DNA of 64,000 nt from Candidatus Woesearchaeota archaeon (GCA_021734105.1 JAIPJP010000001.1:36603-100602); one strand, 5' to 3'; numbered from the stretch's first letter, positions 1 through 54,915 are shown. Notes: a model not told the origin generated them from the letters alone. Made by a program: numbers and translations.

Positions 1-112
1 TAATCTTGCAAACGCACTAGCAAATATTGTAACGAATAATCTAAGCGAAGGAATTCTTGGTAATCAGACAGAAACTAATGGTAGTTTTAATCCTTATTTA
101 TACTCTTGTTCG

Positions 113-3100
113 TTGTCATTAAGGTATAGGTGTTCTGCTGCTTATGTAATTTGGTCATCTGCGCCTTCAACTAGTGCTCAGTGCGAAGCGTGGTGTGAAG
201 CGCAAGATGCTACAGGTTACTCGTGTTGTCAATTTCTAGGTGGGACTTGTGGTATGAGTTCTAGTAGCACAACGTACACTGGCAACGTTGGCGATAGTGC
301 TGGTTATTGTTCGTGGACGGGGTATAGTAACGGGTATAGTTGCTCTATTGATAGTGATTGTAATAGTGATAATTGTCAGTACAGGCAAGTTAGTCCCAAT
401 GATATTATAACAGTATTTTCTGGTTCTTCAAGTGATATTGTTTGTTGTGATGAGGATGATTGCGTCTATGGGGGTACTTGTTATGATCCTGATACTGCTT
501 CTTCTGATCATACTGGTTGGGGAGTAGAGGTTTATTCTAACCCTGCTGGTACTGGTGGAGATAATGATCAGGTTGTTTGTAATGAGTGGGGTGCTAGTGA
601 TGCTCGGTGGGGTAATCTTGATTATGCTAAAAGCTGGTGTGAATCAGGTACAGGTACTGCTTGGAATCTTGGTTATGGTGATGCTGATGTAGAGGGGTCA
701 TATTATACTGCTTATAGTTCTGCTACAAGACCAACTTATTGCAAGGCAAGTAATGCAACTACTTTAACTCCTAGTGTTGATTGTTGTTGTGGCGATGATG
801 ATGGCGAGTATGTTAGGGGCGGGGATACGGGTGGTGTAGGGTATGAGTCACTTGATGGTGATACTGCTTGTTGTGATTCTGATACTGATTGTGTTGATGC
901 TTCTGGTAATTGTCGTGCTCCTGGTTATGATGCTGGTTCTTATGTGTGCAACTCTACCGGTGGTGTGTGGTTGAAGGATGAGGGCCAGTCTTGCTCTGTT
1001 GATGGTGATTGTTATAGTAATGATAATTGTGTTACTGCTATTAATTCAGCTTCAAAATATTGTGCTCCCGTTGGTGATGAGTGTTCTCGTTCAGGTTATG
1101 CTGGCGGTTATGATACAGGCCAAACATATGATGCGGGAACTACTATATGGATCTGTTTAGGCGATGATTTAGGTGGTATGGCTTGTGCTGATGCTGGTAC
1201 AAATAATTGTGATGAGACTGCTGCAAGTTCAGCAATTAATTATTATTGTAGTACAGGAACGTGGGTTAGCGGAGCTGATAGTGCTGGTCTTGATGCAGGT
1301 TGTGGTGTTTGTTATGTTTGCAGTGTAGGGACCGGTACTGGTCCTTCTTGTTCAGCATATGTTTCAGCTTATACTACTGACGCTGGTGAGTGTACTGGTA
1401 GTACTGGTTGTGAAGGTTCTGATTGTGTTTGTGATGGTTCAGGAAATTGTGATATCAATAATGGCGATACTTGTGCTGGTGATTCACAATGTGTAAGTGG
1501 TGATTGTAATACTCAGCCTGATAATACATGGGCTTGTACTCTTTCTTCTGATGAGTGTGCAGATGTTGCTGGTACTGGTCGAGATATAGGTTATAGTGTT
1601 TGTGTTGGCACTTCAGATTTTACTTGTGCTCGTGAAAGTATTTATAGCGGTACGGATGGATGGGATAGTGTTTCTTGTACTAATACTTGTCAAAGTGATG
1701 GTGACGGTACTTATTCAGATAAAGAAGCCACTTGTTCTTCAGCTGCTTGTGATGCTTTGACTTCTTGTAATGCGGGTTATGCTTGTAATGGTGCTGCAAG
1801 TAAAACTGATGGTAATGATTGTGCTACTAGTTGTGCTAGTAATGATGATGATTATTGTGCAGATGGTTATACTTGTGAGGGTACTTCTTGTGTTGATACA
1901 TTAGATGATGGTTCCACTACTGTTTGTGATGAGGATTCTGATTGTACTAATGATAATTGTGTTACTGCTATTAATTCTGCTTCTAAGTATTGTGCTCCTA
2001 GTGGTCGTGAGTGTTCTCGTTCTGGTTATGCTACTGGTTATGATACTGGTGATGTTTATAGTAATTATATTTGTCTTGGTTATGATGATGGTGGTCAGTT
2101 AGGTAATGTTGCTTGTGAGATTGCTCCTACTGATGCTGGTAGTTATTATTGGTTGTCTGCTTCTGGTTGGTCTTCTGGTACTGGTTCTGGTGTTTCTTGT
2201 TCTTCTACTGATAATTGTTTTGGAGAGTCTCGTTATACTGATTATGCTTGTGATGGTTCTGGTTCTTGTACTCAGCCTGGTACTGCTTATACTAATGGTT
2301 GTTCTTCTGAGACTGTTTTAAATGCTTATGAGTGTACTGCTGGTTCTTGGTCTCAGGTTGGTGCTACTTATTGTTGTGAGAATGCTGCTTCTGGTACTGC
2401 TGTTGTTTCTGATCCTTGTTCTGGTAAGAGTTCTGCTTGTATTAATTCTCGTACTTGTGCTAATGGTGCTGATTCTTGTGATTTTACTGCTAGTGCTGCT
2501 GAGTCTGGTTGTGGTGATGTTGATTGTTCTGGTTATATTTATGGTTGGGTTGGTAATACTTGTCAGCCTTATGGTACTAGTGCTGGTTATTGTGATGCCG
2601 CTGGTACTTGTGATACTTCTGCTGATCCTACTTCTTGTAATGTTGCTCCTGTTGGTTCTGGTGGTCCTACTTGTGGTAGTGCTGGTTGCGTGGATTCTAG
2701 TTCTTGTCTTATTGGAGGTCCAACGTCTGCTTATGATGAGATTTCCGAGGTTTGTCATGTTGATGGTGCTCAGCATGGTTGTTCCGCTGGTCAAGTTTGT
2801 GATGCTACTGGTACTTGTGTTGATACGTCTGCTCCAACATTTGGCGATGTTTCAATTTCTGGTCATGACTATCTATCTGGTTCGACGTATTGGGCTCAAG
2901 CAGGAACTACTTTTACTGTTTCGTATCCTGGCTATGATACGTATAGTATAAATTCTGGAGATCATTACTTACGAGCTTATAATGGTACTCATGAAGCTAG
3001 AATAAATGGTTTTCTTAACGGGGTTGTTGATAATAACGAATGGATAACAAATTCACATATTAATCTTAATGGTGGTGGTGCTCCAAGTATTGTAACACAA

Positions 3101-6100
3101 AGTTCTGGCACTCTTGAAATTGCGTATTATCCTACTATGTCTACAAATAATGCTCAGTTTCCATTGTATGGTTACTTAAGAGATGATGCTAATAATGTAA
3201 ATGGTTATGATCGTTTAAATGATGGTTCTGGAGATGTTACATTGGCTTGTGATAATGATGGTCCTTCTGATCCAAATGTAACAGTTACTGGAGTGACCGA
3301 TGATTCTGTAAGTCTTTCTTGGACTGTGGCAGATGATGAGTCTGGTATTGATTATATTCGTTTGTACTTTCAGAAATCTCCTTATGTTGATGCCGGTGAT
3401 CAAATTGATATTGATGGTTGCGGAGGCACCGTTGAGTATAGTTTGCCTGTGGGTACTGCAAGCTCGTATACTATTGATTGTTTAGAAGGTAATCAAGATT
3501 ATAGATATTATATTAGAGCATATGATAATGTTGGTTTAACGACTAATGATGGGTATTATACGGTAACTACTGAATGTGGAGCTCATTCTGATTGTGCGAG
3601 TGGAGAGTATTGTTCAGCAGCAGGTTCTTGTATTGCGCAAATATCTACTGAAGGAACAGCATGTTCTGATGCTGCTGTGATTGATAGTGATAGTGATAGA
3701 ATGTGTTCTGATACTACTTATGCGAGAAGTTGTTTTAGCGGTTCAAACCAATATTGTCAAGGAACTGGCGCGGCAGCTACTGGCGGTGAATGTCGTCGTA
3801 ATAATGGGGAGTCTTGCAGTACAGGTGATGAATGTGGTAGTGGTGTGTGTGCTTCAGGAACTTGTCGTGCCGCTAATGGAGGGGTTTGTAACTCGCCAGG
3901 AGGTTGTGGTTCTGAAACTTGTTCTGCAGATGATAATAATTGGAATAGTGGAGATGGTCAATGGGGTGGTCCGGCGAATAGCGGTTGTGCAACAAACATG
4001 CCTATTGATGAATACACTGCAAATTTTGCTGATTGTACTGTTATAGGTAGTGGTATTGGTAATTGGAATAGGGATTCTGATTGTGATGAAAATTGTGTAG
4101 GGGATAATGTTACTATAAATTCAGGCGGTCCGGTCTACCCTTATTGGTACGGTTATTGTATAACGTTAAGAACTTATGGTCAGTCTTGTTGTCAAGCTCG
4201 TGGCGGTGGTTCTGGTGGTTCTGGCGGTGGTGATTGCGCTGCTAATTTGGACTGTTATGGTGTGAGTGGTGCTACTGCTGGCGTGTGTCGTAAAGTGAAT
4301 GACCAAACGTGCGATAATGGCGATGAGTGTTTCTCTGATTTATGTATTGGCGGTACTTGTCAATCTGCTTGTGATGGAACTAATGATGGTCAAGGTTGTA
4401 GTTCCACGAGTACTTCGTATACGACATATGGTACTTGTGCTGGTCAGAATGGCGGATCGTATGTTTGCGATACAACCGATGAAGTTGCGTATGATCCCAC
4501 AGTGTATGAAACTCTTTGTTCTAATGCTGCATATTCGGATAGTTGTATGAGTTCTGCAGGAGGTCTTTTTTCTGCTGATGGAGTTTGTGGAAGTACAAGT
4601 AATGCTGCTTGTTGTACGCAGTTTGCTGATGGAACAAGCAGCGATAATAGGCCTTTAGCGTGTACTGCAGGAAATAGTTATGCACCAAGTAGAGAATATT
4701 GTGATTATGTTGGTGATGGTAGTTGGGATACAGGAACGACTGCTGGAACAAATAAATTTAGAACTGATGCTAGTGATAATAAATGTGTTGCCTGTGATGC
4801 AAATAATAAGGAGTACGCTGTTACAAATTTAGGTACATCCGATGGTTTTTGTGAGTATGGTTGTGGTGCAAATATTTATTGTGATGAACACGCATCTGGT
4901 TATGATATAGGTCGTTGTGACCAAACAGGTCAGTCTTATTATGAAGATGAATGCACTTCGACGTGTGGATTACAAGACGTAACTACTTGTGAAGCAACAG
5001 GAACAGGATGTACTGCATCAAGTGAGTGTGATGAAAATAACATAAATACTTGTGCAAATAATGGCGGTCTTGACGCGACAACACCTTATGGTTATTGTTC
5101 AACTTGTACTGTTCAGGCAGCTACAGCATCTGAAAATGCTTGTAAATGTGCTACTTGTGGAACAGATAATTCAGGCGTTCCAACGTGCACGATAAATCCT
5201 TGGAGTGCTAGTAATTGGGCTGGTTCTCAAGGTGGAGATGTTTGTTGTGGAGATGAAAGCGCTGAAAACGCAAGATATAGAAATGAGTATGCTTCTTGGA
5301 CTGATCAATTTTCTTGGAATGATGATACGACCGACACAGCTTGTTGTAGTTCAACAGAACTTTGTACTTATGGAGGTAATTGTTATACTGTTGGACCTAA
5401 AGATTTAGATTCTGTGGGTGGACGCGAAGCTTATTGTCATAGTAGTGGTGGTGGTTGGTTAAACACGGATTATCATGAAAGTTATTGTGATGATTACTAT
5501 GGTGATGATGCTTGGAATGTAGGAAATGGAGACGCTATTGGTGATAATTGGACTCCTGTAAATGGTAACACTGTTGATCAGAATTATTGTAATGCAAGGC
5601 AAGCAACCGAAGGAGGAAATTTTGTTGCTAGTCTTCATTGTTGTTGTGGTGATGATGAAAACGAAAATCGTAATAGTCAAGTGTGTTCTGGCGTAACTGA
5701 TTGTGCGACTACGCCAACTGATGATGCTTGTTGTGATGCGTCAACTGATTGTGTTGAAGCTGGTGTTTGTTATACTCATTATCCTGATGGTTTGGCTGAT
5801 TCTTCAGATACTTCTGTTGATTTTGGTGATGAATGGGGGACGTGTGTTAGCGGTACGTGGGTTGATCCAGATGTTGTGGAGGCTCGTTGTACTGAAATTA
5901 ATAATCATGCTTCTGGAACTGCAACTTGGATTGTTGCTGGCGAGATATGTGGAGAGTATTCTGATACGACTACGTCTGCTTGTTGTGGTGATGATGACGG
6001 CGAGAATTATATTAATTGTGTTGCAGAAACGAACGCTAAATTTCCCGACACGGGTACTTGTGATTCGAGTGATGCTGCTTGTTGTGATGCTTCTTCTGAT

Positions 6101-9100
6101 TGTGTAACTGCTGATGATCAAACTTGTGTTACTAATGCAACGACTCATGATGGTGATGGTGATGGTGATTTAGATTACTGTCTTGATGGGGAGTGGCATG
6201 ATTGTGCTGACGATTCTCATTGTGCAAGTGATGAAATTTGTGTAGGTGATGATTTTAATTCCGAAGGTCATTGTTCTTATGAGTATTTATGTCGTGATGT
6301 TGATTTTGAAGCTCCTGGAGGCACACTTGATATTGGTGAATGGGCATATTATGTTGATTTAGATGGTTCCGCGGCTGGTTTTAGTTGTGGTGATCACGCA
6401 TTTACTGTTCCTGCAACTCCATCAGGAAATTTTTGTGTGCGATTCGATATTTTGGATGGAGATAGTCATAGTATTGTTGCAGGGACATCGTTGAATCATG
6501 ATACTAATGAATATTTTCCTGCATCAACTAATACTGACAATAATAATTGGGATGCAAATTTTGTGTATGATTATGATGATTCAACAAGTAATTTTATTCA
6601 AGCAGAACCTCGTGAGTGGGAAACAGGTATTGCTCTTTTCTTTGGTAATTATATTTCTGAAGCAGGTGATACAGATAGTGCTTCCAGTCAATCTGGTTGT
6701 TGTGATGATGCTACTGATTGTGTTTATGATGCAAATATATTGAGAAATGTTACTCCTGCATCGCGTAGTGGGTTTACTGAAAATGATTATGGTTGTTATG
6801 ATCAAACCACTCTACTAGAGACTGGTTATGGTGATGGTGGTAATGATGATAGTGCTGAGTATTGTGGTGCTTCTAATACTTGGTATGCTGCTGATGAAGA
6901 TGGAACTGCTTGTAGCGCTGCAGGTGGTGTTTGGGGAAGTAGCGGTATAACGGGTGGTGATGTTGCTGACGCTCCTTTTGGCGGATATATTGTTGGTTCT
7001 GAGACTGAGTGTTGCGGTGATGATGCTGGTGAGAATTATCGAGGTAGTGCATCTGGTGGTGATGGTTATCAATCGTTAGTTGGTGGTACCTATGCTTGTT
7101 GCGATGCTTCTACGGATTGTGTTGATGATTCTGGTAATTGTGTTTCTAATACGGGAACTCATTCGTATACTGGTGTTTGGTGGGAATGTCAAAGCGGTGT
7201 TTGGGTTGATGTTGGTTGTACTGCTTCAACGAATTGTGCTGCTGCGCAGTATTGTGATACAACGACGCATGTATGTACTGCGATTGCAACGCCGTCTATT
7301 ACTGCTTCTGCTCAAGATGATTGGGTGTTAAATGGTCGTCTTGGCGGTGTTGATGTGGATTGGTCTGGAACTCTTCCTTCGCCAACTGATTTATCTTATG
7401 AATATCATGTTGAAATGACGCTTCCTTCTTCAAGTACTTTGTATGATGGTAGTTCCACTTCGTATGATCATTCTTCTTTAGAGGATAATGTTAGGTATTG
7501 TTATCGCGCAAGAATAGAAAATACTGGTACTGTAACTCACTATGGTTCTTGGACTTCAAATGTTTGTAATGTAACTTTAGACAGGACTGGTTTTAAAGCT
7601 GATTATCCCGCGATTACTTTAGATCCGCAAAATAGTGCAAGTAATCGTATTGATGTCGGATGGAATGACTTAAATGTTTCAGCTGCAGGAAACGATGATT
7701 CTCCACGTGATAGGTATGTGAAAGTTAATGGAACAATTCAGCACACTACTTCTCGAAGTTATGCTTTGTGTTCTATGACTGATTCTTGGGGCGTGAGTTC
7801 TTGTACTAATTATGATGTGTATGGTAGCACTGCTGCTCGAGATAGTATGGTAACAGCAATTAATAGTTTATCTGCTGGGCAAAATGTTGTTGTTACAACG
7901 TATGATGAACCTGCAAATAATTTGCCTGGTTCTTTGGCTACGGCTTTAGAAAGTTTGGGTGCGTCAACTGAAGCGCTCGCTTCTATGCAAACACGTGGTA
8001 GTTATATTTTACTTGGTCAAAAAGGTTTATCTGAAGGAACAGCGTTTTCTGAAAGCCAAGGGATGCGTTATGGTTCTTCAATTTATGAAACGTTTGATTA
8101 TCAAATTTTTAGGGCAAACAGTTTGAGTAGTACGTTTGAGCCTGTTGGTGGTTACTTTGATGATTTCTCTGATGGTGATTACACAAACAACGTCGCGTGG
8201 ACTGCTCATTATGCTACGTTGGATGCTTCAAATGGTTATTTGAATCTCACTGCTTCGGATAGTTCGTATGAATCAAGAGCGTACACCTCTATTAATTTAC
8301 CTCCTGACGTAGTTGTTGAATTTGATGCGTATGTTCAGACGGGTGATTACATGATGTGGGGCTTTGCAGCAACACCTTATACTTTTAGTAATGGTCAACC
8401 AACAAGTGGTGTTCGTCATTGGACTGATATTGATGATCCTTCATTTCCTATGTCTGATATTCGAGAGTATGGTGAACCTGATGGTGTTTTTGATATTAAA
8501 GATGCAACAAATATGCCGCATAGCATAGATATTAATGAAGATGAATGGGTGCATTATAAAATTATTAAAAAAGGAAGTAATTACAAATTCTTCGCCAGCG
8601 ATATATTGGTTTATGAAGCAATTGATGATACCTTTGCAGATAGCACGCTACGTTTCTTTGTAGGATCTAACACCAATGGGACAAATGCAGAGATATACTT
8701 TGACAACGTACGTGTTTCTCCTTTAGTTTCTACTGATTCCTATGAAGATACTGATGCAACTGATAATGCCCAGCCAGTAGCGCCTTCTGGTCTTGGTTCT
8801 TCAAGTCACACGGTAAGTACGTGGAGCGGCGATACAACTATTGATGCAACTTGGACTGATGCAAGTGACTCTGGTGATGATTACTTCTATTATATGTATG
8901 GTGTTGATTCCATGGGCAACATAAATTCCTTTGACTATGATACATTTGAGACATCTTATAGTGGTTGGTATCCGCGAACAGATCTAACAATTTCCAGACA
9001 AACAACATATTCTCATGGTGGTTCTTATTCCTTGCGTGCTTATGATGACGCAACTGATGGACAGTTTCAATTCTATAAAAATTATGGATCGACACTTCAG

Positions 9101-10135
9101 GATGAGTCAACTGACTTTGTTGCGGTTGCTTATGTCTACTTACCAACAGCAGGAGATTTAACTGGTGTGAGATTACAATATCGTGATGGCGGTTCTAATT
9201 TTTACACTGGTGGAACAACTTATGATACTAATTATTACACTGACTTGGATCAATGGGTAAGAATAGAGCTTCCTTTCACTGCAGATGCATCAAGTGGTAA
9301 CGGATTTCTCACTTTTCAGGCAACTGGCTCTGAAGTTGATGATTACATGTTTGTTGATGATGTGAGAGTTTACAAACGAGTCGATGATACCATCACTTCC
9401 GGTCTTGATGGTTATGCAACATCGTTTACATCTGGCGCATCAGATATTTCTTCCACGACTAAAGATGTAGAAAATAGTGCGCAGTCAAAAACTAGTAGTT
9501 CTTTATCTTCTGGACAAAATTATTATTTCAATATTAAGTCAGTTGACAACGCAAACAATTGGGATGTTGCTGCTGATACTGCTCATTATGGTCCTTTTTG
9601 GGTTTGTGCGGATAGTGCGGGTGTTGTTGATAGTGATGGTGATGACCCTTCAGGAACAGTAAGTCTTACAGATGCTGATACTACTTGTGGTTGTAGCGCG
9701 CAAGATATTACTGATTCAGACGCATGTGATTCTGATGTTGATGGTACTGCTGATGGTGTTTGTTCTGCTGGTGGTGTTTGCGCGGTTCCTTCGCCTGTTG
9801 GTAAACAATTTAAAGTTGATGATAATTCGGGTGCGAGTACGCTCTTAATTGATGAGAGTGGTGATGTGTTTATTGGTGGTTTGGTGTATGATTCGCAAGG
9901 TAGTTTAACGCCGCCAGCTAATTCTTTTATTGTAAAAAATAATGCTGGAACGGTTGTTTCTTATGTGAGTAGTAGCGGCGACTTGTATTTGCTTGGGCAA
10001 TATTATGCGCAGTCAGCTATGAGTCCAACAGGATCTAATCTTTTAGTGAAAAATACGACGGGTACGGTTGCGTACTTTGATGATGCTGGTAATCTTCGTC
10101 TTAACGGAGCATTAATTACTGGTTATAGCGAATAG
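113..10135 (+). CDS. Giant secreted, cysteine-rich multidomain surface protein, at least 3340 aa. The reading frame is open from nt 2, so the gene is probably truncated at its 5' end by the window.
   Basis: A single uninterrupted ORF of 10 kb. Cys, Gly, Asp, Thr and Ser are extremely abundant. A 'CCGDD(D/A)GEN' module followed by 'ACCDASTDCV' recurs several times. There is an FN3-like segment ('VTVTGVTDDSVSLSWT...YYIRAYD') and two ConA/LamG-like beta-sandwich segments ('...LRFFVGSNTNGTNAEIYFDNVRV', '...FVDDVRVY'). C-terminal beta-strand repeats are present ('IVKNNAGTVVSYVSSSGDLYL' / 'LVKNTTGTVAYFDDAGNLRL'). The annotated start is a TTG. No stop codon occurs in frame between nt 2 and nt 113. 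Confidence 0.8.
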   Translation: MSLRYRCSAAYVIWSSAPSTSAQCEAWCEAQDATGYSCCQFLGGTCGMSSSSTTYTGNVGDSAGYCSWTGYSNGYSCSIDSDCNSDNCQYRQVSPNDIITVFSGSSSDIVCCDEDDCVYGGTCYDPDTASSDHTGWGVEVYSNPAGTGGDNDQVVCNEWGASDARWGNLDYAKSWCESGTGTAWNLGYGDADVEGSYYTAYSSATRPTYCKASNATTLTPSVDCCCGDDDGEYVRGGDTGGVGYESLDGDTACCDSDTDCVDASGNCRAPGYDAGSYVCNSTGGVWLKDEGQSCSVDGDCYSNDNCVTAINSASKYCAPVGDECSRSGYAGGYDTGQTYDAGTTIWICLGDDLGGMACADAGTNNCDETAASSAINYYCSTGTWVSGADSAGLDAGCGVCYVCSVGTGTGPSCSAYVSAYTTDAGECTGSTGCEGSDCVCDGSGNCDINNGDTCAGDSQCVSGDCNTQPDNTWACTLSSDECADVAGTGRDIGYSVCVGTSDFTCARESIYSGTDGWDSVSCTNTCQSDGDGTYSDKEATCSSAACDALTSCNAGYACNGAASKTDGNDCATSCASNDDDYCADGYTCEGTSCVDTLDDGSTTVCDEDSDCTNDNCVTAINSASKYCAPSGRECSRSGYATGYDTGDVYSNYICLGYDDGGQLGNVACEIAPTDAGSYYWLSASGWSSGTGSGVSCSSTDNCFGESRYTDYACDGSGSCTQPGTAYTNGCSSETVLNAYECTAGSWSQVGATYCCENAASGTAVVSDPCSGKSSACINSRTCANGADSCDFTASAAESGCGDVDCSGYIYGWVGNTCQPYGTSAGYCDAAGTCDTSADPTSCNVAPVGSGGPTCGSAGCVDSSSCLIGGPTSAYDEISEVCHVDGAQHGCSAGQVCDATGTCVDTSAPTFGDVSISGHDYLSGSTYWAQAGTTFTVSYPGYDTYSINSGDHYLRAYNGTHEARINGFLNGVVDNNEWITNSHINLNGGGAPSIVTQSSGTLEIAYYPTMSTNNAQFPLYGYLRDDANNVNGYDRLNDGSGDVTLACDNDGPSDPNVTVTGVTDDSVSLSWTVADDESGIDYIRLYFQKSPYVDAGDQIDIDGCGGTVEYSLPVGTASSYTIDCLEGNQDYRYYIRAYDNVGLTTNDGYYTVTTECGAHSDCASGEYCSAAGSCIAQISTEGTACSDAAVIDSDSDRMCSDTTYARSCFSGSNQYCQGTGAAATGGECRRNNGESCSTGDECGSGVCASGTCRAANGGVCNSPGGCGSETCSADDNNWNSGDGQWGGPANSGCATNMPIDEYTANFADCTVIGSGIGNWNRDSDCDENCVGDNVTINSGGPVYPYWYGYCITLRTYGQSCCQARGGGSGGSGGGDCAANLDCYGVSGATAGVCRKVNDQTCDNGDECFSDLCIGGTCQSACDGTNDGQGCSSTSTSYTTYGTCAGQNGGSYVCDTTDEVAYDPTVYETLCSNAAYSDSCMSSAGGLFSADGVCGSTSNAACCTQFADGTSSDNRPLACTAGNSYAPSREYCDYVGDGSWDTGTTAGTNKFRTDASDNKCVACDANNKEYAVTNLGTSDGFCEYGCGANIYCDEHASGYDIGRCDQTGQSYYEDECTSTCGLQDVTTCEATGTGCTASSECDENNINTCANNGGLDATTPYGYCSTCTVQAATASENACKCATCGTDNSGVPTCTINPWSASNWAGSQGGDVCCGDESAENARYRNEYASWTDQFSWNDDTTDTACCSSTELCTYGGNCYTVGPKDLDSVGGREAYCHSSGGGWLNTDYHESYCDDYYGDDAWNVGNGDAIGDNWTPVNGNTVDQNYCNARQATEGGNFVASLHCCCGDDENENRNSQVCSGVTDCATTPTDDACCDASTDCVEAGVCYTHYPDGLADSSDTSVDFGDEWGTCVSGTWVDPDVVEARCTEINNHASGTATWIVAGEICGEYSDTTTSACCGDDDGENYINCVAETNAKFPDTGTCDSSDAACCDASSDCVTADDQTCVTNATTHDGDGDGDLDYCLDGEWHDCADDSHCASDEICVGDDFNSEGHCSYEYLCRDVDFEAPGGTLDIGEWAYYVDLDGSAAGFSCGDHAFTVPATPSGNFCVRFDILDGDSHSIVAGTSLNHDTNEYFPASTNTDNNNWDANFVYDYDDSTSNFIQAEPREWETGIALFFGNYISEAGDTDSASSQSGCCDDATDCVYDANILRNVTPASRSGFTENDYGCYDQTTLLETGYGDGGNDDSAEYCGASNTWYAADEDGTACSAAGGVWGSSGITGGDVADAPFGGYIVGSETECCGDDAGENYRGSASGGDGYQSLVGGTYACCDASTDCVDDSGNCVSNTGTHSYTGVWWECQSGVWVDVGCTASTNCAAAQYCDTTTHVCTAIATPSITASAQDDWVLNGRLGGVDVDWSGTLPSPTDLSYEYHVEMTLPSSSTLYDGSSTSYDHSSLEDNVRYCYRARIENTGTVTHYGSWTSNVCNVTLDRTGFKADYPAITLDPQNSASNRIDVGWNDLNVSAAGNDDSPRDRYVKVNGTIQHTTSRSYALCSMTDSWGVSSCTNYDVYGSTAARDSMVTAINSLSAGQNVVVTTYDEPANNLPGSLATALESLGASTEALASMQTRGSYILLGQKGLSEGTAFSESQGMRYGSSIYETFDYQIFRANSLSSTFEPVGGYFDDFSDGDYTNNVAWTAHYATLDASNGYLNLTASDSSYESRAYTSINLPPDVVVEFDAYVQTGDYMMWGFAATPYTFSNGQPTSGVRHWTDIDDPSFPMSDIREYGEPDGVFDIKDATNMPHSIDINEDEWVHYKIIKKGSNYKFFASDILVYEAIDDTFADSTLRFFVGSNTNGTNAEIYFDNVRVSPLVSTDSYEDTDATDNAQPVAPSGLGSSSHTVSTWSGDTTIDATWTDASDSGDDYFYYMYGVDSMGNINSFDYDTFETSYSGWYPRTDLTISRQTTYSHGGSYSLRAYDDATDGQFQFYKNYGSTLQDESTDFVAVAYVYLPTAGDLTGVRLQYRDGGSNFYTGGTTYDTNYYTDLDQWVRIELPFTADASSGNGFLTFQATGSEVDDYMFVDDVRVYKRVDDTITSGLDGYATSFTSGASDISSTTKDVENSAQSKTSSSLSSGQNYYFNIKSVDNANNWDVAADTAHYGPFWVCADSAGVVDSDGDDPSGTVSLTDADTTCGCSAQDITDSDACDSDVDGTADGVCSAGGVCAVPSPVGKQFKVDDNSGASTLLIDESGDVFIGGLVYDSQGSLTPPANSFIVKNNAGTVVSYVSSSGDLYLLGQYYAQSAMSPTGSNLLVKNTTGTVAYFDDAGNLRLNGALITGYSE

Positions 10136-10148
10136 GAGGTATGAATAG

Positions 10149-10559
10149 ATGGTACAACAAAAAACAAAAACAAAATCAAAAACAAAATCAACAAGTAAGC
10201 CGAAGAGCAAACAAAAGAGTGTTGCGAAAAAGTCTAGTCTTGCTTTGGTTATAGTTGCGGTAGTAGCAATAGTGGCTTTGCTTCTAAGTGTGGCTGCATG
10301 GATTTTTCCAGTTAATAATACTAAAGATGTAAGTTGGGAATGTGTGCAAACAGTGTGTACGGAATTAATGAGTGAAGCTGAAATTGAAGCACAAGTCTGT
10401 TCGCAGACTGATCAAGGGATGGTGTGTTCTTTAGAAGTTGATGGACAAGTAAGTGTTATTCCTCGTGAAGAACTCAACTTTACTGGTTTGCAATTGTGTA
10501 AAGCGCAAGCGTGTATTAAGGAAGTACAAACAAGACCGGCAAATTATTCGTTAGAATAA
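10149..10559 (+). CDS. Small membrane protein with a Lys-rich N-terminal tail, one TM helix and a Cys-containing ectodomain.
   Basis: A GGAGG motif ('aggaggt') sits just upstream. The N-terminus reads 'KTKTKSKTKSTSKPKSKQKS' and is followed by a hydrophobic helix 'LALVIVAVVAIVALLLSVAAWIF'. The gene is tightly spaced after the giant gene. Confidence 0.5.
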   Translation: MVQQKTKTKSKTKSTSKPKSKQKSVAKKSSLALVIVAVVAIVALLLSVAAWIFPVNNTKDVSWECVQTVCTELMSEAEIEAQVCSQTDQGMVCSLEVDGQVSVIPREELNFTGLQLCKAQACIKEVQTRPANYSLE

Positions 10560-10615
10560 GTTTAAGTAAGCTGAACTGATAAAACTGAACTGATAAAAAA
10601 ACAGGAGATGAAATA

Positions 10616-13186
10616 ATGGCTCAAGGAAATAAAATGAATGCAAATAAAACAGGTGTTAAGCAAAGAAAATTGATTTCGTTTAGCATGAAATTTTGTATTC
10701 TTGTAGTGATAACTCTATTGTTTTCATCTTTTGCTTTTGCTGATGAAACAAGTCTCTCCATTCAAGGTAAACTCGTCAATGCTTCTTCGGGTGCTGTTCT
10801 TTCAGGTAGTTTCTCAACCAACTTTTCCATATATGATGCGTACTCTGGCGGTAGTCCTTTATGGTCGCAGGTTTCAACAATTACAGCTGACTCGCGTGGT
10901 GTCTACAGTGTTGAGCTCAGGGGGATAACGCTTGACTTTGATGTGCCGTACTACTTAGGAGTCAACGTCGCAGGTGATGGCGAAATGTCTCCTAGATATA
11001 ATTTGACTTCTAGTCCTTATTCTTTTTCTGCGAGTGGCTTAAACGAAACAATTATTCTCAATAATAATGTGAGTTTTGACAGCGGAACCTTGTTTATCGA
11101 CACGACGAATAATAGACTTGGTATTGGAACAATTAATCCTTCTGAGCAATTGACTATGAAAGCTAATGAGAAATTGGCTTGGGAGTATACTTCTGGAAGT
11201 GGAACTGCTTTTCATTGGATTAGTGGTGGCGGTGTTAACCCTATGAATTTCACTGTTAATTCTTTTAGTGCAGATACGTCTATATATTCTTTTAATGGAA
11301 ATTCTGGTAATGTAATGACTATTTTAAATGGCGGAAATGTCGGTATTAACACTACAACTCCAACTGCACTTCTTGACGTAGACGGCAACTTCACTGCTAA
11401 TGAAATCTGCCTTGGCGGTGTTTGTGAATCTGCTTGGCCTGCTGGCAGCGGTTCTTCTGATGCTGGTGGTTGGACAAATACAAGTACTGAAACAGTGACG
11501 AGTTTAAAAGTGGGTGTTGGAACTACCTCAGCAACACAGCATAGTTTACATGTGCAAGATGGTAGCGTGTATATTGATGATGATTCTGCAGGTACTCGTC
11601 AGGGTTTGGGTTTGCAGTATGCTTCGGGAAGTATTTTTTGGATGAATCCTATAAGTACAACTGTTTTAGGTATTGGTGGTGCTGGCACTTCTGCTCCTGC
11701 AACTCATACATTATATTTAACTGCGACTGGCGATGTGGGTATTGGAACTGCTAGTCCTGATGATATTCTTCATATATTTGGGGCTAATAAAAGATTGAAA
11801 TTAGAAGGAGAGGGGGATAGTAATATAGGAACAATCATCTATTCAAATAGCACTTATAAATCGCATATTGGATATAGTTCTGGGTCAGATGGATTAATAT
11901 TTGCTCACGCAGAATCAGGATTAACTAATTTTAATGATATTGATATGATAATTAAAGACGGAAATGTGGGTATTGGGACTAATAGTCCTGAGAGCATCTT
12001 ACATTTAAAAGATTCAGATACTCACATAACTTTGGAAAGTACGGGAGCAGGGGATGCATCTTATGGATTTATTGAAATTAAAGATTCTACTGGAGAGACG
12101 ATGGGTTTTTCAGGTTTTGATAGTGGATCTAATGCAGATTACACTATAAGAACTTATAATGTTTCGGACGGAATTGATTTTCAGACAAATGGATCTAATT
12201 CTCGGATGTATATTAATCAAGAAGGAAATGTCGGCATCGGGACGACGAGTCCTTTAGGATTATTAAATGTTCATTCTACTGGACCAACTACTTTAGGATT
12301 AAGTTCAACAAGAAATCTTGATGGGCAAGGTATAGGAATATTAAGATTTTATGGTCAAAATGATGCAGGAACTCCTGAAGATGTAATTTATTCTCAAATT
12401 AGTACAGGGATTACAGATGCTTCTGATGGAACAGAAGATGGTAATTTAAATTTTTGGACAATGAAAGATGGAACAATTACTAAACAAGTCACAATAAATG
12501 AAGCAGGCAACGTAGGTATTGGAACTGTTAGTCCTGATCAACTTTTAGATATTGAAGGAGGAAATATTCTTATTGATAATAACCAATACTATATGGCGGA
12601 AAATACTATTGGAACTAATGTGGCAATAGCTTTTATTGATTCTTCTAATGTTACGGGTTTAGGAGGAGTTTTTTCTGGAGCTGAAACATCTATTCGTTCA
12701 GCTGGAGGTGAAGCAATTCGTATTGATACTTCTGGGAATGTAGGTATTGGGACTAGTAGTCCTGATGAGAAATTAAGTATTTTTGGAAATAGTGGGGGAA
12801 CTTATCTTGAAATTCATGACCAAAGAAGTACTGTTGGAGATTTGGCAGGAATAAAATTAGGGACCATGCCTTCAGGTCAAACCACTAACATGAAAACAAT
12901 GATTGCACACATAGAAACAGGAAATTATGGGATAGGAGATTTGGTTTTTGCATTAAATCCATCAGTTTCTGATTCTGAAGTTACTATCTCTGATGAAGTA
13001 ATGAGAATAAAAAATAGCGGCGATGTCGGTATTGGGACTACTTCGCCTTCAAAAACTTTAGAAGTCAGTGATGGAACTAAAGGTATTACGTTTGATCCTG
13101 ACCCAACGGATCCAGTGATTAACACTACAAGTGGCGATATTGTTATCACATCAGCTGGTGGTGATGTTATTATTCAATTGGGTTAA
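10616..13186 (+). CDS. Secreted repeat protein of 856 aa. It carries about eight degenerate copies of a fibre-like repeat, G(N/D)VGIGTxSP(D/E)xxL(H/D/S)(I/V), and may be beta-helical or tail-fibre-like.
   Basis: There is an N-terminal hydrophobic signal ('ILVVITLLFSSFAFA'). Repeat copies include 'NVGINTTTPTALLDVDG', 'DVGIGTASPDDILHIFG', 'NVGIGTNSPESILHLKD', 'NVGIGTTSPLGLLNVHS', 'NVGIGTVSPDQLLDIEG', 'NVGIGTSSPDEKLSIFG' and 'DVGIGTTSPSKTLEVSD'. N-x-S/T sequons are frequent. Confidence 0.7.
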   Translation: MAQGNKMNANKTGVKQRKLISFSMKFCILVVITLLFSSFAFADETSLSIQGKLVNASSGAVLSGSFSTNFSIYDAYSGGSPLWSQVSTITADSRGVYSVELRGITLDFDVPYYLGVNVAGDGEMSPRYNLTSSPYSFSASGLNETIILNNNVSFDSGTLFIDTTNNRLGIGTINPSEQLTMKANEKLAWEYTSGSGTAFHWISGGGVNPMNFTVNSFSADTSIYSFNGNSGNVMTILNGGNVGINTTTPTALLDVDGNFTANEICLGGVCESAWPAGSGSSDAGGWTNTSTETVTSLKVGVGTTSATQHSLHVQDGSVYIDDDSAGTRQGLGLQYASGSIFWMNPISTTVLGIGGAGTSAPATHTLYLTATGDVGIGTASPDDILHIFGANKRLKLEGEGDSNIGTIIYSNSTYKSHIGYSSGSDGLIFAHAESGLTNFNDIDMIIKDGNVGIGTNSPESILHLKDSDTHITLESTGAGDASYGFIEIKDSTGETMGFSGFDSGSNADYTIRTYNVSDGIDFQTNGSNSRMYINQEGNVGIGTTSPLGLLNVHSTGPTTLGLSSTRNLDGQGIGILRFYGQNDAGTPEDVIYSQISTGITDASDGTEDGNLNFWTMKDGTITKQVTINEAGNVGIGTVSPDQLLDIEGGNILIDNNQYYMAENTIGTNVAIAFIDSSNVTGLGGVFSGAETSIRSAGGEAIRIDTSGNVGIGTSSPDEKLSIFGNSGGTYLEIHDQRSTVGDLAGIKLGTMPSGQTTNMKTMIAHIETGNYGIGDLVFALNPSVSDSEVTISDEVMRIKNSGDVGIGTTSPSKTLEVSDGTKGITFDPDPTDPVINTTSGDIVITSAGGDVIIQLG

Positions 13187-13208
13187 AAAAACTAACGAGA
13201 AAATCATT

Positions 13209-15458
13209 ATGATTAAAACAACCACGCAACTAAAATTGTTTTGGGCACTTCTTGTCCTTATCTTGCTAGTTGTGCCGCTTGCTATTGCGCTTGATCAATC
13301 AAGTAGTGGTTATATCTCTGAAACTATTGTGGTGACTGGCGGAACAACTGCAAATTCATCAACGTATCAATCCACGCTTTCTGTTGATACTATTTCAGGA
13401 ACATCGTCTTCAAGCACGTACGATATGCAAATTGGCGCGCAATATATTTTATCAGAGTATCCTCCAGAGATAAGTTCAGTATCTCTTTCAGCCACATCTG
13501 CTGATAACTTCACATCTGATAATCTTTCAGTTTCTTACTCGACGAGTGATAATGATAGTAACATTGTTTATGCTATTACTGATTGGCGTGAAAGCAGTGC
13601 AAGTATTGCAGTCCTCAACATGCCGTTTAACACAAGAGTTACAGACCTCGGCTACGAAGTTAAAGATTTCACGAGTTATAATAATCCTGGAGTGTTTGCA
13701 AGCGCTGCAACGCAGCCTTCATGGACGTCAAGTGGTAAAGTCGGTGGCGCGTACACGTTTGATGGTGGTGATTATTTTTCTGTTGCTGATGATGATAATT
13801 CGTTGGATGTAACAACTGATTTCACGATTACGTTTTGGATGAATGCTAATGACTTAATAACTTTAAATCCGAATATTATTTCAAGAAATGGTGGTGGAGG
13901 GTATGAACCTTGGCGAGTAGAATTTACTAACGCGCCTAATGTTCGTTTAATTATTGCAAACACAACAACAAATCGTGATTTCTTATTAAATTATGCACAT
14001 GGTTTAAACACTGGTTCTTGGCATCATGTCGCATTAACGTTTGATGATGGTACTGCAGAATTATTTATCAATGGATCTTCAGTTGCAACAGACACGTCTG
14101 CAATAACTGCAGTTCGTGTATCTGGCAGTCCTTTATATGTTGGTGCAAGAACAACGTCAAGTAATTTCTTCAATGGCAGTATTGACGAAGTTCTCATTTT
14201 CAACCGCGTGCTTTCTGAAGATCAGATTGCTCAACTCTATGCGGATAGTAATGCAGGAAAATCTATGGAAACATTATTTTCCAATGAAACGAATTATGCT
14301 GATGTTTGGTCTGTTGCGATAACTCCTGTTGATGAATTTGACGTTGGAGAAACTGTTGTTTCAAACACAGTATCTATTGACGGCGGCACGTTAACTCTTG
14401 TGCATAACAATACCTTTGCAAATAACACGAACGCTCATTCTTTTAATGTCACAGCAGGAGTCTTAAGTTCGTCTGGTCCAAGCGCGATCAAGAACATATC
14501 TATAACTAATGATAATGGAACGTGTGTCAATGTTGTCAACACAACGTCAGGAAATTATTTCAACACAACATTCACGTGTACGGGAACACCTTTCATCGGC
14601 AGTTTAGTAAATATTACTTTCTGTAGTTATTCTGATGATTGTGTAGAAACGCCTGCAACAAGTAACGCATATCCTAATCAAATACCTAGTATGGGTAGTC
14701 TTCTTGCTCCTAGTGATGGTAATTCTTCGTTAATTAATCGTAATGTTACGTTTAATTGGAGTGCTGCATCTGATGATGATAATGATGTTTTAACATATCA
14801 TATTAATGTGACGAATATGAATGGTACGGACGTATCGGTTCTTTGCCCGGGTTTTACAAACACTATCCCCGCGCCAAACACCTCGTATAACCATCACACG
14901 CTTCTAAGCACATATCTTGAGTGCAATCCAATTACTAATGAAGGCTATCGTTATTTCTGGCAAGTTAAGGTGTGTGATTCGTGGAATTGTTCTGATTACA
15001 CAACGGCATGGAATTTTTCAATTACTGATTATTTAAATTTCGCTTTAACAACTGATGCAATTAATTTTACAACCGTAGGTCAATTGTATCCTAATGATGT
15101 AGAGAATACTACTGATGATGTTCCTCCCCCGTTTGTTGCGGAGAACACAGGGAATATTTATTTAAACGTTACTAATGTAACTGCAACAGCCTTATGGAAT
15201 GCTGTCGGTCTTGATACGTTTTATTATCAATACAAAGCAGCTAATACTTCAGAAGCAAATTCTTTTTCATGGTCTACTTCGCAAACAAGTTGGAACAATT
15301 TTACGGGTGTGACAAATACTGATGTGCTCATTGGCAATTTGAGTTTCCTTGATGATAGCGATACTGCTGAAATTGATGTACAAGTTACTGTTCCTGCAAT
15401 AGAAGATGCAGGTCAAAAATCAAGCACGATTAATTTTTACATAACTATGGCTGGTTAA
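13209..15458 (+). CDS. Secreted protein with a LamG/concanavalin-A-like domain. It carries a very large number of N-glycosylation sequons.
   Basis: I chose the ATG at 13209 ('MIKTTTQLKLFWALLVLILLVVPLAIALD', a signal peptide) rather than the upstream extension that overlaps the previous gene. The LamG signature reads 'TITFWMNANDL...WHHVALTFDDGTAELFINGS...LYVGAR...FNGSIDEVLIFNRVLSEDQIAQLY'. There are more than 30 N-x-S/T sequons. Confidence 0.7.
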   Translation: MIKTTTQLKLFWALLVLILLVVPLAIALDQSSSGYISETIVVTGGTTANSSTYQSTLSVDTISGTSSSSTYDMQIGAQYILSEYPPEISSVSLSATSADNFTSDNLSVSYSTSDNDSNIVYAITDWRESSASIAVLNMPFNTRVTDLGYEVKDFTSYNNPGVFASAATQPSWTSSGKVGGAYTFDGGDYFSVADDDNSLDVTTDFTITFWMNANDLITLNPNIISRNGGGGYEPWRVEFTNAPNVRLIIANTTTNRDFLLNYAHGLNTGSWHHVALTFDDGTAELFINGSSVATDTSAITAVRVSGSPLYVGARTTSSNFFNGSIDEVLIFNRVLSEDQIAQLYADSNAGKSMETLFSNETNYADVWSVAITPVDEFDVGETVVSNTVSIDGGTLTLVHNNTFANNTNAHSFNVTAGVLSSSGPSAIKNISITNDNGTCVNVVNTTSGNYFNTTFTCTGTPFIGSLVNITFCSYSDDCVETPATSNAYPNQIPSMGSLLAPSDGNSSLINRNVTFNWSAASDDDNDVLTYHINVTNMNGTDVSVLCPGFTNTIPAPNTSYNHHTLLSTYLECNPITNEGYRYFWQVKVCDSWNCSDYTTAWNFSITDYLNFALTTDAINFTTVGQLYPNDVENTTDDVPPPFVAENTGNIYLNVTNVTATALWNAVGLDTFYYQYKAANTSEANSFSWSTSQTSWNNFTGVTNTDVLIGNLSFLDDSDTAEIDVQVTVPAIEDAGQKSSTINFYITMAG

Positions 15459-15470
15459 AAGGTTTTTATA

Positions 15471-16727
15471 ATGTATAAAAAGAATAGGAAAGAAAAGAAC
15501 CGAGACAATAACAAAGTATTGTTTTTCTTAGTGTTAGCTTTTCTTTTTTTCTTAGTGTTCTCTTCACAAGTAAGTGCGTGGGGAGTGTATCCTGCTCGTC
15601 AACATGCAGAAAATACTCGTGAGCTTCAAGAGTTTCATGTCACGTTGGTAAATAGCGAGTTTAAAGATGCGTATTTTAAAGTAAACTTTGGTGGCGCTTT
15701 AAGCAATTATGCAGTATATAATGGCGGTCTTCTTCATTTCACTCAAGAGAAGAATCAAATTAACATTCCTTTTAGTTTGCAGCTTAGAGATAATTTGCAG
15801 CCTGGAAAAAACACGTTAAGCGTTGTTTTACAAGAAGTGAGCGATGAATACAAAGAGGGTGTTTCCTCAACAGTAACGCTAGTTGCAGAGGTCGTGGTGA
15901 ATATTCCTTTTGAAGGTAATGTTGTTTCTGCGCAACTTCTTGTGACGCCGCAGGGCATAAACGAGCCAACTGATTTACATATTGGTATTTTAAACAAAGG
16001 TGATGATGCTGTTTCTGTTTGGGCTGATGTAGTGATTAAAGGACCAACAAATAATGTTATTACTAAGTGGACAACAGATAAAGAAGTCATTTCTTATGCT
16101 GCAACTGGTGGTATTACAACTTCTTGGGTTGGTAACAAAAATCCTGGAATGTATCTTGCCGAGGTAACCTTGCATTATGGTGATAAAGTGATGGTTTTGC
16201 GTAAAGACTTTGCTGTTGGTGATAATAGTTTAGTTGCAGAAAGTATTAGTGCTACTGATTTTCGTCTTGGTGAAATCGTGCCTTTTGAAGTGATGGTGTA
16301 TAATAATTGGAACGCTCTTCGAGAAGGTGTTTTTGCAGAGCTTTTTGTTATTAAGCCTGATGGAAAAATTGTGCAGACGTTTAAAACAAGTCCAACGGAT
16401 ATTAACGCGTTGGCGCGTGGGGCGCTTACTGGTTATTGGGATACGAAGAATCTTGTTGTTGGTAATTATGATTTATCTGTGTTGTTAAATTATGATGATA
16501 AAACTAGTCAAGAAACATTTTCTGTTCTTGTTAGTTTAGATGATGTGAAGATTTCTAATAAGGTTTCTGGTGATGTTATTGGTGGTAGGGGTTCGGCTGT
16601 TGGTGATGCTAATGGTGGTTTGTATTCGTTATTAGTCTTGCTTATTGTTGTTCTTATTGTGGTGAATGTTGTTTGGATTTGGATTGCAAGAAAAAATATT
16701 CGTGGGGGCGGTAGCAAGAAAAAATAA
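15471..16727 (+). CDS. Surface protein of 418 aa with a signal peptide and a C-terminal TM anchor plus a basic tail.
   Basis: The N-terminus 'VLFFLVLAFLFFLVFSSQVSA' is a signal peptide. The C-terminus 'LYSLLVLLIVVLIVVNVVWIWIARKNIRGGGSKKK' is a TM helix with a basic tail. The gene lies 12 nt after the previous one, so an operon is likely. Confidence 0.65.
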   Translation: MYKKNRKEKNRDNNKVLFFLVLAFLFFLVFSSQVSAWGVYPARQHAENTRELQEFHVTLVNSEFKDAYFKVNFGGALSNYAVYNGGLLHFTQEKNQINIPFSLQLRDNLQPGKNTLSVVLQEVSDEYKEGVSSTVTLVAEVVVNIPFEGNVVSAQLLVTPQGINEPTDLHIGILNKGDDAVSVWADVVIKGPTNNVITKWTTDKEVISYAATGGITTSWVGNKNPGMYLAEVTLHYGDKVMVLRKDFAVGDNSLVAESISATDFRLGEIVPFEVMVYNNWNALREGVFAELFVIKPDGKIVQTFKTSPTDINALARGALTGYWDTKNLVVGNYDLSVLLNYDDKTSQETFSVLVSLDDVKISNKVSGDVIGGRGSAVGDANGGLYSLLVLLIVVLIVVNVVWIWIARKNIRGGGSKKK

Positions 16728-24951: not shown

Positions 24952-25293
24952 GTGTAACTCCCTCTTATTATTTTTTTTCTTGGTTATTCTCTTCGCTTCC
25001 ACAACGAACACTGCCCTGTTGTCACTATGAAGTGAGATATTATATATAAACGTTTCTATATCTGGTGTTTGGGGCTACATAAATTGCTTTAGGAGTACTT
25101 TTTTTTGCTTGTTTTTGCTTGTTTTTGCTCGTGTAGCTCCTAACTCAAAAAAACTTCAAAGGAGTTAGGCAAACGATTTTGAACAACACCCTCAAAACAC
25201 AAGTTTTAAATATCACATAAAGTATGTTAGTAGTGGTTTTTGTAAACTGGGAGATATTTATCTCTATACAAACAGCGTAAGGTGACACAAAAT

Positions 25294-51821: not shown

Positions 51822-52004
51822 TCAGCTGGTTTTTTTAACGAGTTGTTCTGGTGTTGCATGAAAACTATATTTGAGTGTGAGGTGTGGTGGTGGCGCTCGA
51901 AGTAAGGCTCGGTGCACGTCAAATGCTTCGCTTACTATTGCTCGAAGATGCTCAAGATATGCTTTAGCTTCACCTTGTATTTCAAATGAGATGTTGTATT
52001 TCAT
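51822..52004 (-). pseudogene. N-terminal fragment of 60 aa resembling a 2H phosphoesterase (LigT/ThpR-like). It is translationally coupled to the upstream nuclease gene through an ATGA overlap.
   Basis: '...HRALLRAPPPHLTLKYSFHATPEQL' carries an H-x-T-x motif preceded by an Arg-rich stretch, as in the first half of 2H enzymes. At 60 aa the ORF is less than half the length of the family and lacks the second HxTx motif. Confidence 0.3.
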
Positions 52005-53470: not shown

Positions 53471-53618
53471 TTTGTTGGTTATTGTACATTTGTTTTGTAT
53501 TTTTTTATTAATGATGCTTCTTAATTTAATTTGGATACTTATTTGAATCATAAACTACTTTGTAGTCTGACCTTTACAGTAGTTCAAAACTTTTTAATAC
53601 TTTGTTCAACTACGAATT

Positions 53619-54779: not shown

Positions 54780-54811
54780 TGTTGATTATGTATTATAATT
54801 TCACCTTATAA

Positions 54812-54915
54812 ATGTTTGCTTTATTATAAGTTCCTTTATAAACGCCCTTATAGTTACATCGTTTATTATAAATCGAAGTTGATCATGTTGCTTTATTATA
54901 AGTTCCTTTATAAAT
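54812..54915. promoter_or_regulatory. Two copies of a 30-nt direct repeat, 'atgtt(t)gctttattataagttcctttataaa', separated by about 43 nt and lying upstream of fic.
   Basis: The repeats are at 54812-54842 and 54886-54915 and differ by a single T indel. Each contains TATA-like 'ttattataa' and 'tttataaa'. A further 'tttattataaat' lies in the spacer. Confidence 0.6.

Follow-up and report, generated by a model that had tools for sequence, protein, structure and literature searches.

A 64,000-nucleotide stretch of a contig assigned to a Candidatus Woesearchaeota archaeon (GCA_021734105.1, JAIPJP010000001.1:36603-100602), here called the window, opens inside a gene for a giant, acidic, cysteine-rich protein in which a module beginning CCGDD recurs. 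Judged by profile searches, this module is a genuine domain family with no fewer than 316 protein clusters, not peculiar to the window protein, and is a family-level feature of predicted surface proteins of DPANN type. What is new here is an unnamed cysteine-rich repeat, predicted to be extracellular, in a putative giant surface protein, unfamiliar against the libraries searched. DPANN archaea are thought to rely on physical contact with other cells, and we know of almost no contact molecules beyond those of a few cultivated nanohaloarchaea and nanoarchaea; a hitherto unannotated family that picks out a large number of exported proteins, most of them from DPANN archaea, is of interest in that setting. 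Nothing is overturned, since giant cysteine-rich surface proteins were already expected in small-genome symbionts.

The CCGDD module is a true repeat

Residues of the giant protein are numbered below as in the window translation (aa) except where full-length numbering is stated. The protein contains the motif CCGD[DE] five times, starting at aa 262, 1748, 1881, 1994 and 2337 (nt 785, 5243, 5642, 5981 and 7010), and a companion motif, CC[DS]x2-4[DL]C[VT], at aa 148, 290, 1781, 1910, 2027, 2233 and 2366; together they define five full and two partial copies of the module (Table 1). Composition-preserving shuffles of the protein gave 0.028 and 0.013 expected occurrences of the first and second motif against the five and seven observed. 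Self-comparison aligned copies 1 and 5 at 68% identity over 44 aa (E 3.5e-18) and revealed a larger duplicated unit, aa 121-310 resembling aa 1753-1930, and a profile made from the copies in other proteins recovered all five window copies, at E 4e-11 to 2e-20. The repeat reported by a first-pass annotation of the window is therefore real; the shuffles and the existence of the family outside the window rule out a chance or low-complexity artefact.

The extent of the module had been underestimated. Put at about 45 aa initially, it is about twice as long, 80-95 aa, for its conserved core runs beyond DCV to a cysteine, then to C-x2-4-G-x-W-x-D and then to a further cysteine. The five window copies follow the pattern CCGDDxGE - x20-27 - ACCDxxTDCV - x3-5 - C - x12-24 - C-x2-4-G-x-W. 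Seven positions had been proposed for the module: those at 785, 5245, 5640, 5990 and 7015 are the starts of full modules, whereas 6080 is the end of module 4 and 6710 an orphan second half, and another orphan second half, at nt 443, had been overlooked. The region of this overlooked copy is homologous to that of module 2 (aa 121-200 against 1753-1836, E 3.6e-7), and the other partial copy scored E 0.0033 with the first profile.

A domain family outside the named families

The five-copy profile was searched exhaustively against 1.84 billion cluster representatives and matched 316 clusters at E <= 1e-3, 103 at E <= 1e-10 and 12 at E <= 1e-30. The best 150 proteins hold 498 module instances, typically 2-16 each and in a few proteins a single one, often in regular tandem with one module every 90 aa or so. 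As judged by eye, the N-termini of many such proteins resemble signal peptides. Over 388 full instances, C19, C20, G21, D22, D23, E26, C50, C51, C57, C63, C81 and W86 are near-invariant and C96 is present in 73%, giving the family pattern CCGDDxxE - x20-45 - ACCxxxDCV - x4-6 - C - x8-49 - C-x2-4-G-x-W-x-D - x5-7 - C. Two loops between conserved cysteines are variable, at 16-47 and 8-49 residues, and an acidic loop of DxDxD[GSN] type is found in 79 of the 388 copies, among them window copy 4 (HDGDGDGDLDYC).

The initial impression that the module belongs to no named family was borne out against Pfam-A (2025), NCBIfam 20 and the sequences of the PDB. In Pfam-A (2025) the five window copies gave nothing below E 0.47, and every match of 69 diverse copies was confined to a single member (best E 0.0045), with no metal-binding family among them; matches in NCBIfam 20 were likewise single-member (best E 0.0049) and none was reproducible across copies, nor was any module match to PDB sequences. 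Source names were checked for 29 of the 150 proteins, which are called "hypothetical protein", "LamG domain-containing protein" or "S8 family serine peptidase", the repeat itself never being named, and the motif string is not used in this sense in the searchable literature.

With an alignment of 69 module sequences, AlphaFold2 modelled copy 5 at pLDDT 74.8 and pTM 0.65, the core (residues 50-90) reaching pLDDT of about 90, nowhere below 89, and consisting of short beta hairpins and one short helix; a single-sequence model of aa 1874-2410 (537 aa) had pLDDT 34. Foldseek comparison with the PDB gave a best E of 0.17, to VWC, mucin and chitin-binding domains, and with viral models a best E of 0.24, neither being significant; the top sub-threshold fold matches included VWC, FnI, mucin/VWF assemblies and the chitin-binding domains of ChiB/ChiC. 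As modelled, the module is a small cysteine-rich beta domain whose fold may be new and whose likeness to eukaryotic disulfide-rich extracellular modules is one of general style only. It shares with VWC, FnI, mucin/VWF and TSP3 units the character of a cysteine module of about 40-90 aa, the beta hairpins and the tandem use in giant extracellular proteins. TSP3 repeats bind calcium through DxDxDG-type loops, which a fifth of the CCGDD copies match. It differs from all of these in the lack of any sequence match, in having two CC doublets and GDDxxE, and in its archaeal (DPANN) distribution.

The same conserved features bear on the possibility that the modules bind metal or redox cofactors, in which case the CC pairs, together with acidic residues, would chelate Fe, Cu, Zn or mineral surfaces. 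The high content of Cys and Asp/Glu and the paired CC motifs would suit such a role, as would the anoxic groundwater from which many DPANN metagenome-assembled genomes come, where disulfides are unfavoured. We consider it scarcely credible nonetheless: the cysteine pattern lacks spacing of CxxC or CxxCH type, the conserved cysteines are even in number (eight) when C96 is present, the AlphaFold2 model is a small, compact beta domain such as disulfides normally hold together, and no Pfam metal-binding family was matched.

The gene begins upstream of the window and encodes a putative subtilase

Frame 2 is uninterrupted from nt 2 to the stop codon at 10133-10135 on the plus strand, 3,377 codons in all, the open 5' end having been noted at the outset; the remaining two forward frames across the gene are stop-rich. 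The translation is identical (100%) to residues 846-4222 of NCBI protein MCF7798304.1 (P0001 in our collection; 4,222 aa), which is encoded on a 101,732-nt contig that also carries the methionyl-tRNA synthetase gene of the window. Because of this identity the TTG at 113, annotated as the start, is internal, with 845 codons preceding the window; the earlier suspicion that the gene is truncated at its 5' end, that the protein exceeds 3340 aa and that this TTG does not begin it was correct. The first 845 residues were read from the protein record alone.

These residues supply the catalytic part. Peptidase_S8 (PF00082) matches residues 604-830 in full-length numbering (E 2e-25, 90 bits against a cut-off of 21.8), with VLDTG at 611, HGHGT at 645, GNDG at 733 and GTSMS at 795, and by this score above the gathering threshold, together with its Asp, His and Ser motifs and oxyanion Asn, the giant protein classes as a member of the Peptidase S8 (subtilase) family. 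The window begins right at the end of the S8 domain, and the protease, lying upstream of it, was accordingly absent from the first-pass annotation. Hydrophobicity in 19-residue windows revealed a single hydrophobic segment in the whole 4,222-aa protein, at residues 7-40 following MKRDKR, which is predicted to be a signal peptide or membrane anchor; since this sole segment is N-terminal, an extracellular location fits. The roughly 560 aa between it and the S8 domain belong to no recognised family. In its predicted export signal, its S8 domain with D/H/N/S motifs and its non-catalytic domains the protein is like other subtilases (PF00082, MEROPS S8) with C-terminal extensions; it differs in that the extension exceeds 3,300 aa and is dominated by the unnamed cysteine-rich family.

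Such an enzyme might be mainly a secreted nutritional protease that degrades environmental protein for a free-living or loosely associated cell, its cysteine-rich tail only tethering or stabilising the S8 domain and taking no part in host recognition. The catalytic motifs, the NCBI product name of MCF7798304.1 ("S8 family serine peptidase") and the presence of a papain-type protease in another family member agree with this, but the non-catalytic part takes up more than 3,300 of 4,222 residues and includes FN3, ILEI and lectin-like domains, a protease is absent from most family members (one S8 and one C1 among 35 scanned), and the neighbouring genes are predicted to encode surface proteins (LamG_3, CARDB/PKD). 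We regard this explanation as quite improbable.

The composition of the 3,377-aa translation is unusual: Cys 6.5%, Asp 10.7%, Gly 11.7%, Ser 11.5% and Lys 1.0%. Cysteines are dense at aa 1-1000, 1200-2100 and 2200-2450 and almost missing at aa 2500-3200. The coding strand of the gene has a G-over-C skew of 0.28-0.34 over nt 1-8000, against about 0.05-0.2 over most of the window, which probably reflects codons rich in Gly, Asp, Cys, Ser and Thr. A halophilic ("salt-in") cause of the acidity was considered and rejected, the neighbouring proteins being Lys-rich and not acidic (for example that of 10149-10559) and the source being labelled Woesearchaeota. Other genes of the window are archaeal in type (for example a NOG1-type GTPase) and encode non-acidic proteins, so the acidity is a trait of the giant protein and not of a halophilic proteome.

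Other domains of the giant protein

From its N-terminus the full-length protein comprises the hydrophobic segment, the stretch of about 560 aa, the S8 domain, some 2,400 aa of acidic cysteine-rich sequence that holds the five full and two partial modules, one fibronectin type III (FN3) domain and a cysteine-poor domain shared with other proteins, then an ILEI/PANDER-like domain, the beta-sandwich-like region or regions (one or two are counted here, weakly indicated) and the C-terminal domain. The features that lie within the window are listed in Table 1.

Table 1. Features of the giant protein gene, in window coordinates
Feature	Position (nt)	Strand	Evidence
3' 80% of the 12.7-kb gene, codons 846-4222 and stop	2..10135	+	open frame; identity to P0001
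Partial module, second half only (CCDEDDCV...), first half degenerate	362..511	+	model positions 24-72, conditional E 2.7e-4
Module copy 1	770..976	+	profile E 3.8e-11
Cys-rich region with internal duplication, aa 326-400 vs 635-710 (60% identity)	977..2131	+	self-BLAST E 9e-26
Fibronectin type III	3263..3538 (aa 1088-1179)	+	PF00041 E 2.5e-6 to 1e-5, 26.1-28.1 bits vs cut-off 25
Module copy 2, divergent (CCGDE ... CCSSTELC)	5213..5491	+	profile E 1.4e-15
Module copy 3	5615..5893	+	profile E 1.6e-18
Module copy 4, HDGDGDGDLDYC loop resembling a DxDxDG calcium site	5918..6226	+	profile E 1.8e-20
Cys-poor domain, about 150 aa (aa 2086-2235)	6254..6706	+	jackhmmer
Partial module, second half only (CCDDATDCV)	6671..6769	+	model positions 41-73, conditional E 0.022
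Module copy 5 (copy used for modelling)	6995..7234	+	profile E 5.7e-16
ILEI/PANDER-like domain	7793..8026 (aa 2598-2675)	+	PF15711 E 5e-13, 46-49.7 bits vs cut-off 27
Possible ConA-like/LamG-like beta-sandwich, weakly indicated	8069..8776	+	PF06439 (ConA-like clan) E 0.11 at aa 2841-2905
C-terminal domain, about 105 aa, three F-x-V-x-N-x-x-G...D-x-x-G-N-L-x-L-x-G repeats	9770..10132	+	shared with family proteins

The FN3 domain, recognised at first pass, scores marginally above the gathering threshold of PF00041. Two LamG/ConA-like sandwiches had been proposed alongside it. The first, at aa ~2700-2915, is weakly indicated, a LamG_3 profile of 34 sequences giving at best an independent E of 0.051 and hhalign a probability of 45%; the second, at aa ~2990-3180, was not upheld, PDB sequence and profile searches having found nothing there. 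No Pfam LamG model matched the putative sandwich regions, and searches of PDB sequences returned nothing useful for them. The match to PF15711, by contrast, is clear, spanning model positions 15-89/90, and had been overlooked. The cysteine-poor domain at aa 2086-2235 has no Pfam match; jackhmmer found it in three copies in one other protein (P0010) and in one copy in another (P0019). For the cysteine-rich region at 977..2131 there was no Pfam match beyond a sub-threshold Colipase-like one (E 0.032) and no homologue among the 150 module-family proteins, among which the cysteine-rich stretches aa 300-940 and 1190-1740 likewise had no detectable relatives.

The C-terminal domain was also overlooked initially. 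It was found in at least ten other module-family proteins, at independent E of 6e-27 to 3e-41; nine have 3-8 residues left between it and the terminus, and P0011 has 25. It is present too in a LamG protein of an Aenigmarchaeota locus (L007, 13479-15899). Because it always stands at the extreme C-terminus an anchoring or sorting role is suggested, and this second unnamed domain, at or within 25 residues of the end, may be one that anchors or sorts archaeal surface proteins and has so far gone unrecognised. Pfam gave no consistent family and no B_lectin match, only single-member matches to Bflower_2 (E 2.9e-4) and DUF6342, and the best PDB profile match was a marginal one to the bulb-type lectin gastrodianin-4 (E 0.047). 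The domain does resemble the bulb-type (beta-prism II) mannose-binding lectins in having three repeats of about 35-40 aa with D-x-x-G-N-L-x-L, which recalls their QxDxNxVxY / DGNLVLY subdomains; it differs in that the E value is only 0.047, in that Pfam B_lectin is unmatched and in its constant place at the very end of the protein.

Distribution and partners of the module

For locus scans a narrower alignment of eight module sequences was used, and GTDB, at one genome per species and with the window's own genome not among the representatives, was scanned with the pattern [AIY]CCDA[SA][TS]DC. Twelve loci were found, nine of which the module profile confirmed. These come from Undinarchaeota, Woesearchaeota, Altiarchaeia, three Aenigmarchaeota, one short contig binned as Methanosarcinales, one Aminicenantes and a 3.4-kb contig binned as Gammaproteobacteria. 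The pattern matches at L010 (Planomicrobium), L006 and L012 were not confirmed by the profile. Labelled members of the clusters are from Woesearchaeota, Undinarchaeales, Altiarchaeota, "archaeon" and archaeon GW2011_AR3, and 16 further module loci were found in metagenomes. The family is one mostly of predicted DPANN surface proteins. A viral origin was rejected, no relative being found among 2.9 million viral contigs.

Pfam partners were catalogued in 35 family proteins: Laminin_G_3 in seven, DUF2341 in three and Y_Y_Y in three, besides several Ig-like families, fn3, PKD, Pentaxin and the sialidase N-terminal lectin domain; proteases were limited to one papain-type (Peptidase_C1) and one Peptidase_S8. 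The order of S8 followed by modules recurs in P0031, in P0086 (from archaeon GW2011_AR3) and at locus L007, on a 1.1-Mb contig of an Aenigmarchaeota metagenome-assembled genome. There, four overlapping open reading frames (ORFs) in different frames (5093-15899) jointly encode S8, eight modules, a further module, three or four LamG_3 domains and the C-terminal domain seen in the window protein, whose overall architecture they match; frameshifts or faulty assembly may have broken up a single giant gene here. An architecture of protease plus modules thus recurs in Woesearchaeota, Aenigmarchaeota and an unclassified groundwater archaeon, GW2011_AR3. The module, this architecture and the C-terminal domain are candidate profile families, targets for structure determination and potential markers for host-interaction genes of DPANN archaea.

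Comparison with the SPEARE proteins

Giant surface proteins have been proposed as tools of host interaction in cultivated DPANN archaea (PMC6642349, PMC10266531). Those termed SPEARE, from Nanohaloarchaeota, exceed 3,000 aa, are acidic and mostly extracellular, and as first reported contain LamG and Ig/FN3-like domains and a serine-protease region (Hamm et al. 2019, PMC6642349), an assignment of protease that was disputed on re-analysis (PMC10266531). They have a transmembrane segment near the C-terminus (one is reversed, with the segment toward the N-terminus) and a conserved cytoplasmic domain of ATPase/helicase type, read as type III restriction-like or VirB4/TraG-like (PMC6642349, PMC10266531).

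The window protein is like them in being very large, acidic and from a DPANN archaeon and in combining adhesion-type domains with a serine protease; of the adhesion domains it has FN3 and ILEI, with LamG weakly indicated. It differs in that Pfam identifies its S8 domain unambiguously, in having a hydrophobic segment only at the N-terminus and in containing, in any of its parts, no ATPase/helicase family by Pfam. Compared by description and not by sequence, the CCGDD-type repeat has no counterpart among the SPEARE features reported (PMC6642349, PMC10266531). Since the transmembrane segment and the cytoplasmic ATPase/helicase domain are lacking, the window protein is not of SPEARE type.

Possible function of the giant protein

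By analogy, we think it rather probable that the exported giant protein is a disulfide-stiffened acidic stalk which displays a protease as well as lectin-like domains and so makes contact with a host or substrate. Each module would fold independently as a small beta domain cross-linked by disulfides, its eight conserved cysteines pairing into four bonds, and some copies would probably bind Ca2+ through their DxDxDG-like loops. Modules in tandem would then form a stiff, protease-resistant acidic stalk and keep the protease and lectin-like domains away from the cell, and the archaeon could thereby attach to a partner cell or a particulate substrate and process its surface. We infer this from two sets of analogues, the nanohaloarchaeal giant surface proteins and the disulfide-rich extracellular modules of EGF, TSP3, VWC and FnI type. 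Attachment to host or substrate is a reasonable inference, the adhesion context being provided by the Laminin_G_3, Ig-like and fn3 partners in the family and by ILEI and FN3 in the window protein.

Several considerations weigh against the stalk. Many DPANN archaea inhabit anoxic water, and disulfide formation is assumed, as is the pairing of the cysteines. The loop resembling a calcium site is present in only about 20% of module copies. Cleavage may remove the N-terminal segment, the cell-surface anchor could instead be the C-terminal domain, and either end of the protein may be the distal one. The host-dependent lifestyle of this Woesearchaeota metagenome-assembled genome is presumed. Finally, the invariant Trp and frequent Tyr of the module may fit a ligand-binding face equally well, in which case the modules would be binders and not spacers.

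This last point leads to the most serious of the three rival explanations, that the CCGDD modules are binding units, small and similar to lectins or carbohydrate-binding modules, directed at glycans of the host S-layer or at polysaccharide, and that their tandem array provides avidity instead of a passive stalk. Trp86 and Tyr64 both lie in the conserved C-x-x-G-x-W hairpin, the sub-threshold fold matches include the chitin-binding domains of ChiB/ChiC and the VWC and FnI binding modules, lectin-type LamG_3 domains are frequent partners, and the two loops vary in length (16-47 and 8-49 residues) as diversifying binding loops would. Ligand-binding residues, however, are not definable, and near-regular tandem arrays, up to 16 copies long here, are typical of spacers too; we judge this explanation unlikely, if deserving of attention.

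Taken further, the stalk model can be extended into a joint reading that we offer as doubtful: the module would be a new small disulfide-rich fold, calcium-binding in part, that originated and radiated in DPANN archaea and Altiarchaeota; the succession of export signal, S8, CCGDD array, lectin-like domains and three-repeat C-terminal domain would be a conserved, cross-phylum DPANN device for recognising host envelopes and opening them proteolytically; and the C-terminal domain would serve in anchoring or sorting.

Gene neighbourhood and other observations on the window

An ORF of 136 aa (10149-10559) begins 14 nt past the stop codon of the giant gene, with a Shine-Dalgarno-like site, GGAGGT, ahead of it, and is possibly co-transcribed with that gene. 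Its product has a Lys-rich N-terminus, one transmembrane helix, a cysteine-containing ectodomain and no Pfam match; the same ORF is present on a 9.4-kb Logan contig (SRR12088348), without upstream extension. There follows, at 10616-13186, an 856-aa protein with a signal peptide and many (G)NVGIGTxxPxxxL repeats, resembling tail fibres or spikes and without a Pfam match. The giant gene in fact leads a cluster of predicted surface-protein genes (10616-34072), which includes a LamG_3 protein (13131-15458), a protein with a signal and a C-terminal transmembrane segment (15471-16727), a CARDB/PKD protein (20213-22873, minus strand) and two large unrecognised ones, at 27483-31709 (1,408 aa) and 31745-34072.

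On the minus strand at 22909-25011, a 700-aa protein ends in Por_Secre_tail (E 1.4e-9, 38.6 bits against a cut-off of 27), the C-terminal sorting domain of bacterial type IX secretion and an odd find in an archaeon. Further along that strand (38088-39977) lies a gene for a replicative helicase of DnaB type, with DnaB_C (E 3e-37) and the DnaB N-terminal domain. Archaea normally replicate with the MCM helicase, and because DnaB sits here in an archaeal contig an integrated mobile element or virus may be present. The stretch 52001-60000 may be a foreign island: a DUF2779 protein (52001-53551) and a Fic/DOC protein (53619-54779) adjoin two tracts, at 54-56 kb and 58-60 kb, whose G+C of 0.30-0.32 is low for the window (about 0.37 elsewhere). 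At 57072-58058 (minus strand) is a strong match to Tam41/Mmp37 (E 1e-87), a phosphatidate cytidylyltransferase family of mitochondrial type, here in a DPANN archaeon.

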